Source: an uncultured Bdellovibrionales bacterium (GTDB taxonomy: Bacteria; Patescibacteriota; Minisyncoccia; Moranbacterales; UBA2206). Taken from it: a stretch of DNA of 62,270 nt. Below the pieces are notes generated by a model. The model did not search any database and was not told the DNA's origin. It worked only from the letters and a program-made list of their open reading frames with translations. The position numbers were made by a program, and so were the translations under genes. The stretch is from assembly GCA_964538685.1 (NCBI GenBank), contig CAZIFD010000004.1, positions 1-62,270 on the forward strand, given 5' to 3'. This document shows positions 49,020 to 60,295 of the stretch, in pieces (the stretch's first letter is position 1; every line of letters starts with the position of its first letter).

Positions 49020-49102
49020 CAAAGCAAAACAATTTTCTTTCAATTTTTTATCGCCCGCCCGCCAAATTTTTCTTAAAAGGAATTGAAAATTGTTTTGCTT
49101 TG
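49020..49102 (+). repeat. 83 bp unit U (18 bp terminal inverted arms), copy 1
   Basis: caaagcaaaacaattttc-47 nt-gaaaattgttttgctttg; copies at 54903-54985 (identical, minus) and 60213-60295 (3 substitutions, minus). Confidence 0.95.
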
Positions 49103-49246
49103 ACGTCTTGATACCAAGACGGCGGAAACGCTTCGCTACGCCAATTTTATTTTTCGGGCGGGGCGGAAAAAAAGGGGGGGTCTGGGGGGAATTCCGCCCC
49201 GCCCTCTCTTTTCCGCTTTCACTTTTTTCGCTGGCGCTGGAGGCCG
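49020..49246 (+). repeat. Left arm of perfect 227 bp inverted repeat bounding cassette 1 (partner 54759-54985)
   Basis: Exact reverse complement, including homopolymer lengths A7, G7, G6. Confidence 0.95.
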
Positions 49247-49270
49247 TGCCAACTTCATTGGCGCGCCACC

Positions 49271-50086
49271 TTATAATTTTTTTATTGTTTCCGATCCGTT
49301 GGTAGAAATTATTACTGGAGCGACGCCTTTTGTTCCAATAACATATGTTGCCACATTTACTATTTCTCCCTTTTTAGCAAATTGAGCCATTGCTCCGGTC
49401 GTCATCACTACTTTCGGAGGCATGGGGACTGCATAAGTATCAGCGACACCACCCTTTGAAGAATTGTAAACCGAAACCGATTGATATTTCTCAACGCTAG
49501 CTTTGGTCATTATATTGCCTGGCAATTCAGCACTTCCCTGCAGACAATCAGGATGTGTTTTGTTAATTTTTAATCCTAAAATCAGTGACGAAATAAAAAG
49601 GCGTTTTATCTCTTTACGATCTCTTGCTAAAGTTTCGGAATCTTTAACATCCCTTATTTTTTTATTTCCGTATTCGATATCCAACCTGCTCTCAATTAAA
49701 TTATCCTTATTCTTGTCAGGGTCAAACCCTAAATCAAAAATCGGAAATTTGTTTTGTTTGTATAATGCAACTTCCTTTTCATTAAGTAACGTTCTTGTTA
49801 TTAAACACGTTAAATCTCCTTTTTCCAAAAATTTGGATAAACTTCCTCTTGCTTCAACCTTTCTATTATCTTCCCCTTCAATTACAAATGTCTTTATCCT
49901 GTTTATCCAATTATTACCGTTAATTTTTGTTACTATTACTTGTTCCCATGGCAAAATATCGCTTTTTCTTAAAATGCCTTTTGGAATTACCAAGCCCTCG
50001 GCAATTTCGTCCTGTTTAAAAGTATTCCTGCAATTGGTGATAACAAGGTTGTGGATAGCGCTTCTTTTGAAAATTATTTCTTTCAT
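49271..50086 (-). CDS. Tandem double PanD-like (pyruvoyl decarboxylase fold) protein
   Basis: Domain 1 RSAIH...DILPWEQV...NRIKTFVI...GD; domain 2 QGSAELP...DTYAV...GAMAQ...GE, with the Gly-Ser cleavage motif only in domain 2. Confidence 0.75.
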   Translation of the reverse strand: MKEIIFKRSAIHNLVITNCRNTFKQDEIAEGLVIPKGILRKSDILPWEQVIVTKINGNNWINRIKTFVIEGEDNRKVEARGSLSKFLEKGDLTCLITRTLLNEKEVALYKQNKFPIFDLGFDPDKNKDNLIESRLDIEYGNKKIRDVKDSETLARDRKEIKRLFISSLILGLKINKTHPDCLQGSAELPGNIMTKASVEKYQSVSVYNSSKGGVADTYAVPMPPKVVMTTGAMAQFAKKGEIVNVATYVIGTKGVAPVIISTNGSETIKKL

Positions 50087-50186
50087 AAAATTCAGCATTA
50101 CCTTATCACATTGCGCAATATAAGTAATTTTTAAAAATTAAATCCTATGCAATTATAATACGTCTTTTTCTATAAAAAATCAATGA

Positions 50187-50676
50187 AAACCACTAGCTTA
50201 TACGCTAGTGGTTTCTATCCTGCCGTCTAACGACGGCTAGAACAACTTGAGGTTTTCCATATCTACCTGTCGGTTGCTTTGGTTTTGAATATACTTACGG
50301 ATGGCAAATTCATTGATGCCAATGGTAGAAACAAAGTAGCCCCGTGCCCAGAGACTGCCTTTGGGGAATTTTTTAGGCGGTATGACAAGATACAAGTGTA
50401 TATGCTCGTCGCCAATGTGCCATTCGAGAATTTTAATCCCCTTCCATTTGGCAATGAACTTGAATATTCTCTTAAGTTCTAGTTTAATGTAAGTATCTGC
50501 CATTACCTTGCCTCGGTATCTGGGAGTCCAAACTACATGATACTGACAACAGTAAGTGCAGTGCTCTAGTTTATAGAGTTTGGTCAACATAAAATCACCT
50601 CCTTGCTAGTGGGTGATTTTATTATATTCCAAGAGCTAACGCTCTAAACGCACACACCGGCTGACGCCGGTGGTTT
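50187..50676 (-). mobile_element. IS200/IS605-family element, transposase-only, internally deleted
   Basis: tnpA ORF flanked by hairpins aaaccactagc-ttatac-gctagtggttt (50187-50214) and accggc-tgac-gccggt (50656-50671); exact ends uncertain. Confidence 0.7.
50237..50590 (-). pseudogene. tnpA: IS200-type Y1 transposase TnpA with in-frame internal deletion
   Basis: YHVVWTPRYR, HUH motif EHIHL, LWARGYFVSTIG, KYIQNQ; segment normally between IPPK and FP is missing. Confidence 0.8.
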
Positions 50677-50691
50677 ATCTGGTTAAAAAAA

Positions 50692-50723
50692 AGGAGCGGC
50701 TCTCTTTTAAGATTACCGCTCCT
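50692..50723 (-). terminator. Hairpin after radical SAM genes
   Basis: aggagcgg-16 nt-ccgctcct followed on the minus strand by a T-run. Confidence 0.6.
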
Positions 50724-50727
50724 GAAT

Positions 50728-57961: not shown

Positions 57962-59682
57962 AAATTTCTTGGCTTATAAAGTTCTTTGTATATTTTGCGA
58001 TAAACATTCAAAATTACTTCTGGTATTGGTTTTACTACTTTCAAATTTTCCAAATCCTCAAAATCTTCTTCGTTGTATGTGTGGTCATAGCTGAAAACAT
58101 AAACGACTATCGGTTTTTTGTGTTTTTTGGCTTCTTTTTTGAAATCGAAAATTGCGTCTTCATCAAAAATTATACCAGTCATTTGATCTTGATTTTCAAA
58201 AATCGCAAACAATCCTTTTTTGTTTGCCACTTCATCAAAAGTCGCTTCGGCGAGACAAAGCATTTCCGTGCTTCGGGATGTTAAAACTCTTTTATCGTTG
58301 TCAGTTTTTACATTTCCAACCAAATCATTTGTATAGTATCTCAAGTTCCCACCAAGCCCAGCAATAGAATCACCAGACGAATCTTTATAACCCTGAATAA
58401 CATTTTTTATTCTTGGATAACAAACGCCCTGCGCGACTCCTCCATGACCATTGCCATTATTATTTTCATTGTTGGTGCAGAGAATAAACTGCCTATTTCC
58501 GCCATCCTCGTTATTTAATTCCAAAACAGCGTGTCCAGTTGTTCCAGAGCCAGCAAAAAAGTCTAAAATAACAGAATCTTCCTTTGATGTAATCTTTAAA
58601 ATATCCATGACTAAATACAAAGATTTTGGATAATCAAAACGCTTATCACCAAAAATCTTTTTCAAAAGATTTGTTCCGTGAAATTCGGATTGATATTTTT
58701 TATTTGTCCAAACATTTTTAAATACTTGTTGTTCCCTAAATTTTCTGAATATCTGCAACCTTCCTTCAACTTCTTTCGCTATGAAGTGGCCATTTCTATT
58801 TTTATCTTCAAAAGTTTTTGGTAAATTTATCCATGTCATTTCTTTCCCGTCTTTTGTAATTGGCCACACTTCCGTAAATCCTTTTTTCTTTTTTATGGTT
58901 ATCTCTTTGAAATTAGGGCTTACATACAAGGGATACCAAAAATTTGGTTTATTTTCTCGCCTTGTTTCCGTTCTAGCACGCATTAACGGCTCAAGCCTAT
59001 ATTTACCTTCTTCATCGCTTAAATCAAAAGAGCTAGCTATTTCTTCGTCGATTGCAACATTGTTAAATTTAGCCTTTGAAACATCTTTAGCATAAACCAA
59101 CATAAACTCGCTATTTGCAGAAAAAAAGTTATCAAAATTTCTTCCTTTTGGATTATGAACAACCGTAACAACGCCAACTTTATTTCTTTCACCAAAAATT
59201 TCGTCCATTAAAAGACCGAGTGTAAATAATTCGTTGTTATCAATCGTTACAATAAAAAAACCGTCATCTTTTAAGAGATTTCGAGCAAGACGCAAGCGTT
59301 TAGACATGAAGGAAAGCCATTTGCTATGTTTAAATCTATCTTCTCTATCAACATAACTATTGTTATAAATCCATGCTTGACTGCCAGTATTATAAGGCGG
59401 GTCAATGAAAATTACATCAACTTTTTTCTTGTGAGTATAATTCAAAACTGATAAAGCGTGATAATTATCGCTTTCAATAAAAACATGATTAATTCCGTTT
59501 TTATCTTTTGAAAAAGATTTTGTTTTTTCATCTTTCAAAACAGGTAAAGATGTTTTGCATTGTTCGGCGACTTCTTCCACTTTGTCTTCCCAAACAATAC
59601 CAAACTTTTTGCGCTTCAAAAGCTCCTTGTATTCGTGGAGCAGTTTTTCTTTTGACCAGCTTTGAAAATCTTTTTTTGGCAT
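57958..59682 (-). CDS. Type III R-M adenine methyltransferase Mod (beta class)
   Basis: FIDPPYNTG, WLSFM, PKS, LDFFAGSGTTGHAV. Confidence 0.93.
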   Translation of the reverse strand: MPKKDFQSWSKEKLLHEYKELLKRKKFGIVWEDKVEEVAEQCKTSLPVLKDEKTKSFSKDKNGINHVFIESDNYHALSVLNYTHKKKVDVIFIDPPYNTGSQAWIYNNSYVDREDRFKHSKWLSFMSKRLRLARNLLKDDGFFIVTIDNNELFTLGLLMDEIFGERNKVGVVTVVHNPKGRNFDNFFSANSEFMLVYAKDVSKAKFNNVAIDEEIASSFDLSDEEGKYRLEPLMRARTETRRENKPNFWYPLYVSPNFKEITIKKKKGFTEVWPITKDGKEMTWINLPKTFEDKNRNGHFIAKEVEGRLQIFRKFREQQVFKNVWTNKKYQSEFHGTNLLKKIFGDKRFDYPKSLYLVMDILKITSKEDSVILDFFAGSGTTGHAVLELNNEDGGNRQFILCTNNENNNGNGHGGVAQGVCYPRIKNVIQGYKDSSGDSIAGLGGNLRYYTNDLVGNVKTDNDKRVLTSRSTEMLCLAEATFDEVANKKGLFAIFENQDQMTGIIFDEDAIFDFKKEAKKHKKPIVVYVFSYDHTYNEEDFEDLENLKVVKPIPEVILNVYRKIYKELYKPRNL

Positions 59683-59684
59683 AA

Positions 59685-59900
59685 TTATTTTTTGATCAAA
59701 TCGTCAACGCCAACGCCTAATGCTTTGGCGATCTTTGCTAAAGTTTCAATTGTCGGGTTGGTGTTTGTTCCCGCCTCTATTTTTATGATCGTGTTATAAG
59801 TAACATCCGCCAGTTTTGAGAGGCGGTCTTGAGAAATACTCATTTTGCTTCGGTATTTCTTTATGTTGTCGGCAATTGTTGATTTATTATTTGACGCCAT
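59685..59900 (-). CDS. XRE-family HTH regulator (cassette 2)
   Basis: NIKKYRSKMSISQDRLS...IIKIEAG...PTIETLAKIAKALGV. Confidence 0.93.
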   Translation of the reverse strand: MASNNKSTIADNIKKYRSKMSISQDRLSKLADVTYNTIIKIEAGTNTNPTIETLAKIAKALGVGVDDLIKK

Positions 59901-59907
59901 TGTAATA

Positions 59908-59929
59908 TATTACTATAATTAAAGTAATA
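59908..59929. promoter_or_regulatory. Palindromic operator candidate upstream of XRE-2
   Basis: tattact-ataattaa-agtaata; tattactat repeated near 59949. Confidence 0.5.
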
Positions 59930-60079
59930 GGTTTATGTATTGGTCAATCTATTACTATGATAGCAAAAAATAATAAATTCGTAAACAGAAATCAAGGGAG
60001 TTCCTTTGCGTTGCCCGCGCACGGGTGGGTTGGGGCAAGGGCAACATCTCTTTTGGCGGCGCATTTCGCTTTGCGAAAT

Positions 60080-60230
60080 ACGGCCTCCAATTCCGCCGAA
60101 AAAAAGAGCAGTCCGAGCGAGGGCGTGGCGGAAGGAGGGGGTTGGGGGGAGGAATTCCGCCACGCCCGAGCCGAAGCGAAGCGTTTCCGCCGTTTGGCGT
60201 TAAGCCAAACATCAAAGCAAAACAATTTTC
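60080..60230 (-). repeat. Right arm of 151 bp inverted repeat of cassette 2
   Basis: Reverse complement of 54968-55118. Confidence 0.95.
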
Positions 60231-60295
60231 AATTCCTTTTAAGAAAAATTTGGCGGGCGGGTGTTAAAAAAATGAAAGAAAATTGTTTTGCTTTG
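60213..60295 (-). repeat. 83 bp unit U, copy 3
   Basis: 3 substitutions relative to 49020-49102; the 18 bp arms are identical. Confidence 0.93.

Follow-up and report, generated by a model that had tools for sequence, protein, structure and literature searches.

Introduction

Large serine recombinase (LSR) elements and prophages of the SPbeta SprA, A118, Bxb1 and phiC31 type integrate by conservative recombination between short attP and attB sites with a small core; their half-sites are related, and attP adjoins the recombinase gene. In staphylococcal cassette chromosome mec (SCCmec)-type islands, and in the accretion of cis-mobilizable elements and of integrative and conjugative elements (CIME/ICE), cargo is put at one chromosomal site, by the Ccr serine recombinases in SCC, and piles up in tandem; recombinase-less cassettes persist, boundary repeats mark the modules, and defence genes travel in this way. 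Here we describe an island of related design at positions 48919-62221 of the window, the stretch of 62,270 nucleotides that was analysed (contig CAZIFD010000004.1, positions 1 to 62,270 of the forward strand; GenBank assembly GCA_964538685.1, an uncultured Bdellovibrionales bacterium placed by GTDB in Patescibacteriota, Moranbacterales, UBA2206). The island holds two cargo modules, cassettes 1 and 2, and one LSR module beside a tRNA gene, and related loci hold tandem arrays, so that its accretion is SCC-like. It shares the recombinase domains and the mode of recombination of the known LSR elements. Unlike them, it has a tRNA 3′ end as target, an attP that would lie inside the recombinase frame and a second, inverted attP that appears to be retained; the elements are tiny (about 4-10 kb), carry no phage, conjugation or replication genes, and have both modules framed by long near-perfect inverted repeats. 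SCC differs in its short direct repeats in rlmH and has no long inverted arms, internal inverted attP or tRNA target.

Tycheposons of Prochlorococcus are also tRNA-integrating cargo shuttles that build islands in streamlined genomes, and a minority of them carry large serine recombinases (bioRxiv 10.1101/2020.12.28.424599). They differ in having mostly tyrosine recombinases together with replication modules, and no inverted-repeat framing or elements of the T2 or U type described below appear in the text searched (bioRxiv 10.1101/2020.12.28.424599). The element in the window has no primase, helicase or polymerase by Pfam and its recombinase is of the serine type, which sets it apart from the tycheposons. 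Integrons likewise provide a platform on which unrelated cargo modules with hairpin ends are exchanged beside a site-specific recombinase, but they depend on the tyrosine recombinase IntI, their attI and attC sites follow one another in direct order, and their promoterless cassettes are read from Pc; none of this is found here. Two further systems with tyrosine recombinases offer partial parallels. Integration of SSV1 cuts the recombinase gene at attP, whereas here only the last ~12-20 codons would be exchanged, and the yeast 2-micron plasmid is, as the free form would be here, a circle split by a long inverted repeat in which recombination takes place, one of the two arcs carrying the recombinase gene.

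We consider it probable (about 0.78) that the island is the work of an LSR inserting small elements with cargo at a tRNA 3′ end, and that it consists of two such elements in tandem that later suffered one deletion. The integration chemistry and the tandem accretion are of known kinds, those of serine-integrase prophages, SCCmec-type islands and tycheposons. The family itself, small mobile elements of Candidate Phyla Radiation (CPR) bacteria with modules bounded by near-perfect inverted repeats, is widespread and apparently undescribed; its architecture was not found in the full texts searched, where absence is not proof.

Results

Attachment sites of the LSR and its relatives

The LSR is the sole recombinase encoded in the island, and a Pfam search of all open reading frames (ORFs) of 49271-62269 returned no tyrosine recombinase. 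Its three domains (PF00239, PF07508 and PF13408) all score above the gathering thresholds. The relation to SPbeta SprA is distant (E about 1e-11), the A118 integrase, XisF and CcrA/B are also distant relatives, and the protein is below all NCBIfam cut-offs, with the XisF and CcrA/B models far under theirs (72 and 68 bits for CcrA and CcrB against cut-offs of 700 and 900). A perfect inverted repeat of 158 nt, the third in the island, encloses the gene. Its arms, c and c′, lie, like the gene itself and the tRNA target, to the right of the interval covered by the first-pass annotation (positions of all features are given in Table 1). The tRNA gene at the contig end scores 27.2 bits with the Rfam tRNA model, its 5′ end being truncated, and close relatives of this LSR adjoin tRNA-Pro.

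Relatives of the LSR were surveyed with a profile in species-representative genomes and occur in at least 599 of them, most of which are Patescibacteria from many classes; the others carry Bacteroidota or other labels. Among the best 80 loci of the survey, which were inspected, flanking inverted repeats were found around 69 LSR copies in 66 loci (median 126 nt; 34 perfect, 59 at ≥95% identity). The LSR module adjoins a tRNA gene in 50 of the 62 cases with enough flank (Ala, Glu, Pro, Ser, Leu, Gln and others), and the LSR points toward the tRNA in 69/69. A cassette inverted repeat that ends at the start of c is present in 25 of the 38 cases with enough left flank (median 225 nt). The architecture also occurs outside CPR, with LSR, inverted repeat and tRNA in Chitinophagaceae bacterium PMP191F (L146) and in a 1.1-Mb Bacteroidetes contig (L150). 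In a viral collection the LSR profile found only two weak relatives, so this is not a phage family; searched as DNA patterns in the same collection, the T2 core gave 0 matches and the U stem 5 single chance matches.

Three junctions define the element in the window: attL, where host DNA meets the arm L, at 48919; attR, where c′ meets the tRNA, at 62221; and an internal inverted site, where the arm L′ meets c, at 60384. The attR sequence reads c′...TCTG/GTCG/GGCTGCCC into the tRNA, the internal site, taken as the reverse complement of L′/c, reads ...TCTG/GTCG/CAATTGCTGAACG, and the host/L junction reads ...AAAAGT/GTCG/CATTTACTGAACG. In the window, as in nine clean genome loci, the three junctions have a core of 4-10 nt in common, and homology to the element ends exactly there; outside the window, the shared core and the end of homology were seen in 9 + 9 loci altogether. 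After CGAC(CA), the L′ arm of related loci meets either c or unrelated host DNA, and the host side of attL often resembles the terminator region downstream of a tRNA gene. This pattern is the signature of conservative site-specific integration, from which attB is predicted to be host-left, core and tRNA 3′ end, and attP to be c′, core and L. Such an attP would therefore lie inside the LSR reading frame.

The C-terminal end of the recombinase carries a trace of this arrangement. When c′ was joined in silico to the left cassette arm (armL), the frame closed with a conserved tail, ..(L/I)(L/I)xxxARTxFE..stop, in 19 of 20 loci. These 19 span LSRs that are only 45-60% identical and are aimed at different tRNAs. 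The frames of integrated LSRs end in variable peptides read from tRNA antisense, and database proteins carry both types of tail, many of them the native one; for the LSR of the window the native tail is ..SLIWSQLLNEARTFFERKMLE. The same junction sequence, in inverted form, stands where the right cassette arm (armR) meets c, and this armR/c junction reads as an intact second attP retained inside every integrated element. We considered whether the inverted attP might stem from two circles that fused at symmetric sites, and ruled this out, as the cores are non-palindromic (e.g. GTGA).

We propose that the unit element is made of a cargo module (armL-T1-genes-XRE-T2-armR, where T1 and T2 are structured ends described below) and a recombinase module (c-LSR-c′), with armL/armR and c/c′ as near-perfect inverted copies. 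The free form would have its attP at the c′/armL junction, in the last LSR codons. Integration into the tRNA 3′ end would then create attR as c′/tRNA and attL as host/armL, swap the conserved C-terminal tail of the LSR for tRNA-antisense residues, and leave the intact inverted copy of attP (armR/c) between the two modules.

The long repeats also invite a reading as independent transposons, in which the LSR module is an insertion sequence (IS) and the cassettes are non-autonomous cargo transposons, nested and mobilised in trans. All modules are bounded by long near-perfect inverted repeats, the recombinase frame ends in the right repeat as in many ISs, and LSR modules stand alone beside tRNA genes in L188, L154 and L206. 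We find this reading improbable. There are no target-site duplications, the cores that flank the LSR module are inverted rather than direct, and the junctions fit conservative recombination at a shared core. The module sits at tRNA 3′ ends, always in one orientation, and the c arms and the cassette arms are unrelated in sequence to each other. Finally, the LSR takes its conserved tail from sequence of the module next to it, and for this reason the two modules form one functional unit. The LSR module of L188 (9780-11604) has a tRNA-Leu gene on either side, the two being different and convergent, and in L154 and L206 a + orientation tRNA is found directly upstream of the LSR left arm; the internal attP may sometimes recombine with a second tRNA. 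Downstream of the target tRNA-Ala in L026 (6780-7407) there are tandem tRNA-fragment-like pieces, each followed by a GC-rich palindrome of ~80 nt.

A probable array of two tandem elements with one deletion

The repeats of the window were scanned over 46000-62270. A unit called U had been reported to occur three times at module boundaries, and our scan recovered it, with 18-bp stems around an asymmetric interior of 47 nt: the stem 18-mer CAAAGCAAAACAATTTTC has exactly six copies in the window, which make three stem pairs at the positions of U1, U2 and U3. In shuffled sequence 0.77 matches are expected at ≤3 mismatches, and 7 were reached in 0/100 shuffles. Alignment of the arm ends places U1 in the orientation opposite to U2 and U3, and U1 folds with z = −4.3.

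The arms of cassette 1, each with its U, form a perfect inverted repeat (49020-49246 / 54759-54985; 227 nt, 100%) around an interior of 5512 nt, and those of cassette 2 form a second one (54968-55118 / 60080-60230; 151 nt, 100%) around 4961 nt. The interior sizes agree with the first-pass annotation, as does its statement that the cargos are unrelated (a radical-SAM cluster and a restriction-modification (R-M) system). Its description of the arms holds in part: alignment of six arm ends shows that the two pairs are homologous yet diverged, with indels, and that identity within a cassette is 100%, but the partners are reverse complements and not direct copies. The two perfect repeats overlap by 18 nt at 54968-54985, which is a U stem. 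Further out, beyond the previously noted interval, L and L′ (48919-49019 / 60296-60387) form a weaker inverted repeat with 85-93% identity. Copies of arm b that are 89-98% identical occur in at least 20 other loci.

These identities are those expected from the following order of events. Element 1 (L-U1-a, radical-SAM cargo, a′-U...) would have integrated first, and element 2 (b, Type III R-M cargo, b′-U3-L′-c-LSR-c′) would then have integrated on the tRNA side of element 1. A deletion between 18-nt U stems would have removed L′-c-LSR-c′-L, and with it the recombinase module of element 1, leaving U2 as the joint. With its ends in the second stem of the right U of element 1 and in the second stem of the left (inverted) U of element 2, such a deletion would yield exactly a′-U2-b. 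It predicts a perfect match of a+U1 with a′+U2, which is found over 227 nt, and a perfect match of b plus only the 18-nt stem with b′ plus the first stem of U3, which is found over 151 nt. Divergence between the elements fits as well (L and L′ 85-93% identical, U2 and U3 95%), with partners within an element at 100%.

Intact tandem arrays of the form [cassette-LSR]n-tRNA are present in two loci, with three units in L169 and two in L165, and in these c′ joins the armL of the next unit. Deletions that remove an LSR by way of microhomology were seen directly in other loci (L029/L031, L089/L109). The identity of arms within an element is probably kept by gene conversion or recombination between the inverted copies, while the elements diverge from each other.

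Repeats of this kind could in principle come from assembly, as chimeric or fold-back joins at palindromes with identity produced by consensus collapse. The arms are longer than the k-mer sizes, k-mers cannot resolve the orientation of a segment between perfect inverted repeats, and many related contigs begin or end inside arms. As an account of the whole architecture this is nevertheless extremely improbable, since the same order of parts, with arms 82-100% identical, recurs in more than 100 independent assemblies from different pipelines, including L146 (a presumed isolate, whose title has no metagenome-assembled genome label) and the 1.1-Mb contig L150. For each unique interior the two inner junctions are both present, as is possible only with a pair of inverted copies. 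The interiors are also reproduced in Logan assemblies of three runs, which break exactly at the arms; contig L002 corresponds to the interior of cassette 1 and contig L001 to that of cassette 2.

Several points weigh against the account of tandem integration and deletion. The deletion that would have formed U2 is a reconstruction and not an observation, and consensus building in assembly could have made the arms of this contig look more alike than they are. No empty attB was recovered in the searches; of two flanking proteins used to look for an unoccupied site or other arrangements in the same strain, one had no record and the other led to three Logan contigs, all of which break in U1. No unambiguous circular junction was found, as short-read contigs with perfect repeats cannot separate c′/armL from the reverse complement of the internal site; proteins and contigs with a c′/armL junction exist, in contexts that fit a circle, a tandem array or assembly ambiguity. 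The P′-arm motif ..GCNCGAAC.. could in part be a DNA-binding motif that resembles a tRNA T-arm, in which case its conservation is not purely coding. No candidate for a recombination directionality factor was recognised, without a dedicated test, and we know of no family signature common to such factors. The model also does not explain why the inverted attP is retained and why the LSR has a fixed orientation toward the tRNA.

Exchange and orientation of the cargo

The metagenome scan used a 21-nt piece of T2 as query and returned at least 120 loci. Most of them have an XRE homologue some 115 nt away from T2. Both cassette arms are present in about 35 loci, where arms of 42-435 nt, mostly 98-100% identical, enclose 1.6-7.8 kb. 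In 26 loci the T2-side arm is followed by an LSR homologue (45-99% identical), and the LSR homologues of T2 loci are framed by an inverted repeat of 70-182 nt, the outer end of which overlaps a tRNA 3′ end by a few bases.

Pairwise comparison gave more than 50 cases, both cassettes of the window among them, in which the first 90 nt of the arms agree at 96-100% while the interiors are unrelated. What such interiors have in common is limited to about 2% of their length, made up of the T1 and T2 ends. Because near-identical arms flank unrelated cargos, the cassettes are exchangeable and of independent evolution, as the first-pass annotation had proposed; the U, arm, T1 and T2 sequences all recur in other assemblies with other cargos. 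The limits of homology are GCGCCGCC, directly after which it stops, and, at the opposite end of the cargo, GGGAG of T2; they lie some 140 nt inward of U. These limits support the inner ends of the arms, and not U, as the likely points of exchange. The 214 large ORFs of the cargo fall into 146 clusters, mostly R-M systems (EcoRI-type, N4/N6 methylases, GmrSD-HNH, Type I, IIG and III), with transporters, RadC and proteins of unassigned function among the rest. For the most part, such R-M or defence genes stand under an XRE regulator.

The claims that the array is integron-like and that cassettes are recruited at U fared less well. In such a platform U would be a folded palindromic site that captures free cassettes one by one through a site-specific recombinase, and it is true that U is a conserved hairpin with covarying stems at each module boundary and that the cassettes are exchangeable. 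The island has no IntI-type tyrosine recombinase and no attI or attC features, and its boundaries are inverted, the U units not being all directly oriented. Each cassette has its own XRE regulator and strong promoter-like sites (consensus matches). Homology with host DNA breaks off at the L core and not at U, and it is this host/L core, together with the L′/c and c′/tRNA cores, that behaves like a recombination site. Cargo-variable sequence begins about 140 nt inward of U, at GCGCCGCC and T2. The arms of many clades have no U-like hairpin under the same scan, with the architecture intact. A capture platform centred on U is thus very improbable; U would come to stand at module boundaries as a component within every arm of this tRNA-Pro lineage and, in the case of U2, as a deletion joint.

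Between loci, the interior of a cassette may face either way with respect to the backbone (L121 against L112; L103, L011, L067 and L082 against L040, L070 and L087). Within the window, the loops of the GC-rich arm hairpin (49157-49205 and 55031-55077) and of U (U1 and U2) are inverted between arms with the stems kept, which suggests strand switching or recombination across short stems. Such flips are what invertible segments would produce, whether phase-variable, shufflon-like or 2-micron-like, with RecA or the LSR flipping a segment and thereby switching expression of the cargo or the recombinase. A flip of the LSR body would restore the native tail, and the repeats would divide a free circle as they do in the 2-micron plasmid. 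We regard inversion as unlikely to be the basis of the system. The cargo operons have their promoter-like sites and regulator inside the invertible part, so that inversion should not switch them; the LSR was found flipped in 0/69; and to our knowledge, and by the general rules of synapsis, LSRs do not recombine two attP sites.

Structured ends of the cassettes

Both cassettes have the same polarity, as noted in the first-pass annotation, with T1 and T2 just inside the arms and the XRE gene beside T2 at equivalent positions. T1 is GCCAAYTTCATTGGC followed by GCGCCRCC, and this anatomy with covarying stems is present in about 35 loci. The two T2 copies of the window are about 88% identical over 109 nt and have a common block of about 85 nt and a second hairpin. 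In the metagenome loci, T2 appears as a near-invariant block of ~55 nt that starts sharply at GGGAGTTCC, and then comes a hairpin with a covarying stem (ATTTCGC/GCGAAAT against ATTTTGC/GCAAAAT) and arm-like sequence. T2 itself is a hairpin with a stem that varies by subfamily (GTTGCCC/GGGCAAC, TTGCGC/GCGCAA, CTTTTCC/GGAAAAG), and its loop retains the G-tract motif GCGNNNGGGNGGGNNGGG(G)NCAA across subfamilies.

Covariation in T2 is visible only when diverged subfamilies are compared; RNAalifold on 93 T2 sequences gave no informative covariation, the selected set being nearly invariant in its core. Folding of single T2 sequences is weakly significant (z = −2.8 and −1.2). A permissive Rfam scan of 48000-62270 found no family for T2, U or the arms; the only model hit by U, by chance and below threshold, was that of a plant microRNA (26.7 bits; gathering score 74), and T2 had no hits. 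U is conserved as a shape in several clades, with a stem of 13-19 bp of variable sequence and a loop of 47-58 nt with a common motif. As read from the sequence, a perfect four-way junction could arise in single-stranded form from the end hairpins together with the arm stem and GCGCCGCC/GGCGGCGC. In L212 (2140-2225) a T2 variant stands beside a T1-type hairpin and GCGCCGCC instead of a T2-type hairpin; here the 8-bp GCGCCGCC/GGCGGCGC repeats may have served as the ends of a cargo inversion in which the arms took no part.

A more far-reaching and so far speculative proposal, which we think could be right but do not favour, is a plug-and-play serine-recombinase cassette system. Identical att half-sites at both ends of each module would let any cargo join any recombinase module in either orientation and supply the C-terminal tail, integration would rewrite the tail and so act as a directionality switch, and the inverted attP together with the structured ends (the T2 G-tract hairpin, and the hairpin with GCGCCGCC as a potential four-way junction) would mediate capture and exchange. 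If true, this would be a functional analogue of integrons for CPR defence genes, with a different class of enzyme.

Cargo genes, regulators and promoter-like sites

Cargo 1 has a GC content of about 50%, against about 35% for the contig, and may encode a small modification or peptide-maturation pathway. Its PanD-like protein has two partial aspartate-decarboxylase matches, and the IS200/Y1 transposase remnant (50237-50590) has an internal deletion.

Strong promoter-like sites between the XRE gene and T2 face each other in both cassettes (59891-59985 and 54569-54672); the predicted transcripts would overlap by ~20 nt, and the + strand −35 hexamer overlaps the XRE start codon. A strong sigma-70-like site on the strand of T2, 70-83 nt upstream of it and opposing the XRE promoter, is present in 65 of 94 distinct loci (consensus matches). 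No conserved sigma-70-like site was found within 250 nt upstream of the LSR, where a 10/12 match was reached in 7/67 as against the 65/94 upstream of T2. Because of the site upstream of T2 and the lack of a comparable one before the LSR, we hypothesise that T2 is part of a transcript that could read toward the LSR under XRE control.

Table 1. Features of the island and of the second element in the window
Feature	Position	Strand	Description
L	48919-49019	+	attL, P′ half of the distal site, element 1; core GTCG (48919-48922) joined to host; + strand encodes conserved LSR C-terminal tail
U1	49020-49102	-	18-bp stems and 47-nt asymmetric loop; inverted relative to U2 and U3; in left arm of element 1
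Arm a (left, cassette 1)	49103-49246	+	Small hairpin, GC-rich hairpin with G-rich loop, T-run; perfect inverted repeat with 54759-54902
T1 of cassette 1	49248-49270	+	Hairpin GCCAACTTCATTGGC, then GCGCCACC
Cargo 1	49271-54575	-	PanD-like, IS200/Y1 transposase remnant, B12-binding radical-SAM, radical-SAM/SPASM, NUDIX-like, XRE (Pfam)
XRE regulator of cargo 1	54366-54575	-	Pfam
T2 of cassette 1	54674-54759	+	50-nt G-tract hairpin element (54674-54723), GGCGGCGC, end hairpin GCATTTCGC-TTT-GCGAAATGC
Arm a′ (right, cassette 1)	54759-54902	-	Perfect inverted repeat partner of arm a
U2	54903-54985	+	Chimeric unit; 54968-54985 is the overlap of both perfect repeats and the putative deletion joint
Arm b (left, cassette 2)	54986-55118	+	GC hairpin loop flipped relative to arm a
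T1 of cassette 2	55119-55141	+	Hairpin GCCAATTTCATTGGC, then GCGCCGCC
Cargo 2	55142-59900	-	Type III restriction-modification: res 55142-57961, mod 57958-59682, XRE/controller-like regulator 59685-59900 (Pfam)
Promoter-like site	59891-59919	+	TTGACG-17-TATAAT, aimed through T2 at the LSR; consensus match only
Promoter-like site	59985-59957	-	TTTACG-17-TATCAT, for XRE; consensus match only
T2 of cassette 2	59996-60081	+	G-tract hairpin element (59996-60045), GGCGGCGC, end hairpin 60061-60081
Arm b′ (right, cassette 2)	60080-60212	-	Inverted partner of arm b
U3	60213-60295	+	U unit of element 2; 4 positions differ from U2
L′ and core	60296-60389	-	P′ half of the internal inverted attP; core CGACCA (60384-60389); - strand encodes tail SQLLNEARTFFERKMLE*
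c	60384-60541	+	Left arm of LSR module; inverted copy of last 52 LSR codons
LSR	60695-62269	+	Resolvase, Recombinase, Zn_ribbon_recom; frame passes c′ and att core into tRNA antisense and off the contig
c′	62064-62221	+	Right arm of LSR module; forms attR with the tRNA, core GTCG (62218-62221)
tRNA 3′ part	62219-62270	-	Integration target, cut by contig end; tRNA-Pro, anticodon CGG, read by eye
Second family element	51-1984	+	Perfect 137-nt inverted repeat 51-187 / 1777-1913 around a paralogous LSR (372-1973), 45% identical
tRNA-Lys	1909-1984	-	Adjoins inverted repeat of the second element

A second element and the surroundings of the island

The other end of the contig carries a second element of the family. 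Positions 1-50 of the contig, read as the reverse complement, encode its conserved tail motif (..NQARTYF..), and the contig starts inside an arm of this element. Both contig ends are thus set by elements of the LSR family. Host genes to the left of the island (45893-48879) include one for a type IV pilin-like protein (47610-48074) and others for RadC-like, Phd/YefM-domain and DNA-alkylation-repair-like proteins, assigned from translated sequence or precomputed Pfam matches. Apart from the stretches within the two LSR modules, nearly all genes of the contig are on the - strand, and the GC skew is strongly negative.

Discussion

CPR/Patescibacteria have tiny genomes with few recognised mobile elements, and how they acquire defence genes is poorly understood. 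The repeats of the family described here systematically break contigs in CPR assemblies. The family could also yield compact, modular integrases with many tRNA-derived target sites for genome engineering. The design of its attachment sites, unusual for serine integrases, with a tRNA target, an attP in the gene, a retained inverted attP and arms that evolve in concert, could reveal a control of directionality that works without a separate factor. With relatives in at least 599 species-level genomes and a cargo that is mostly R-M, the LSR family would be a major route of gene exchange in CPR bacteria.

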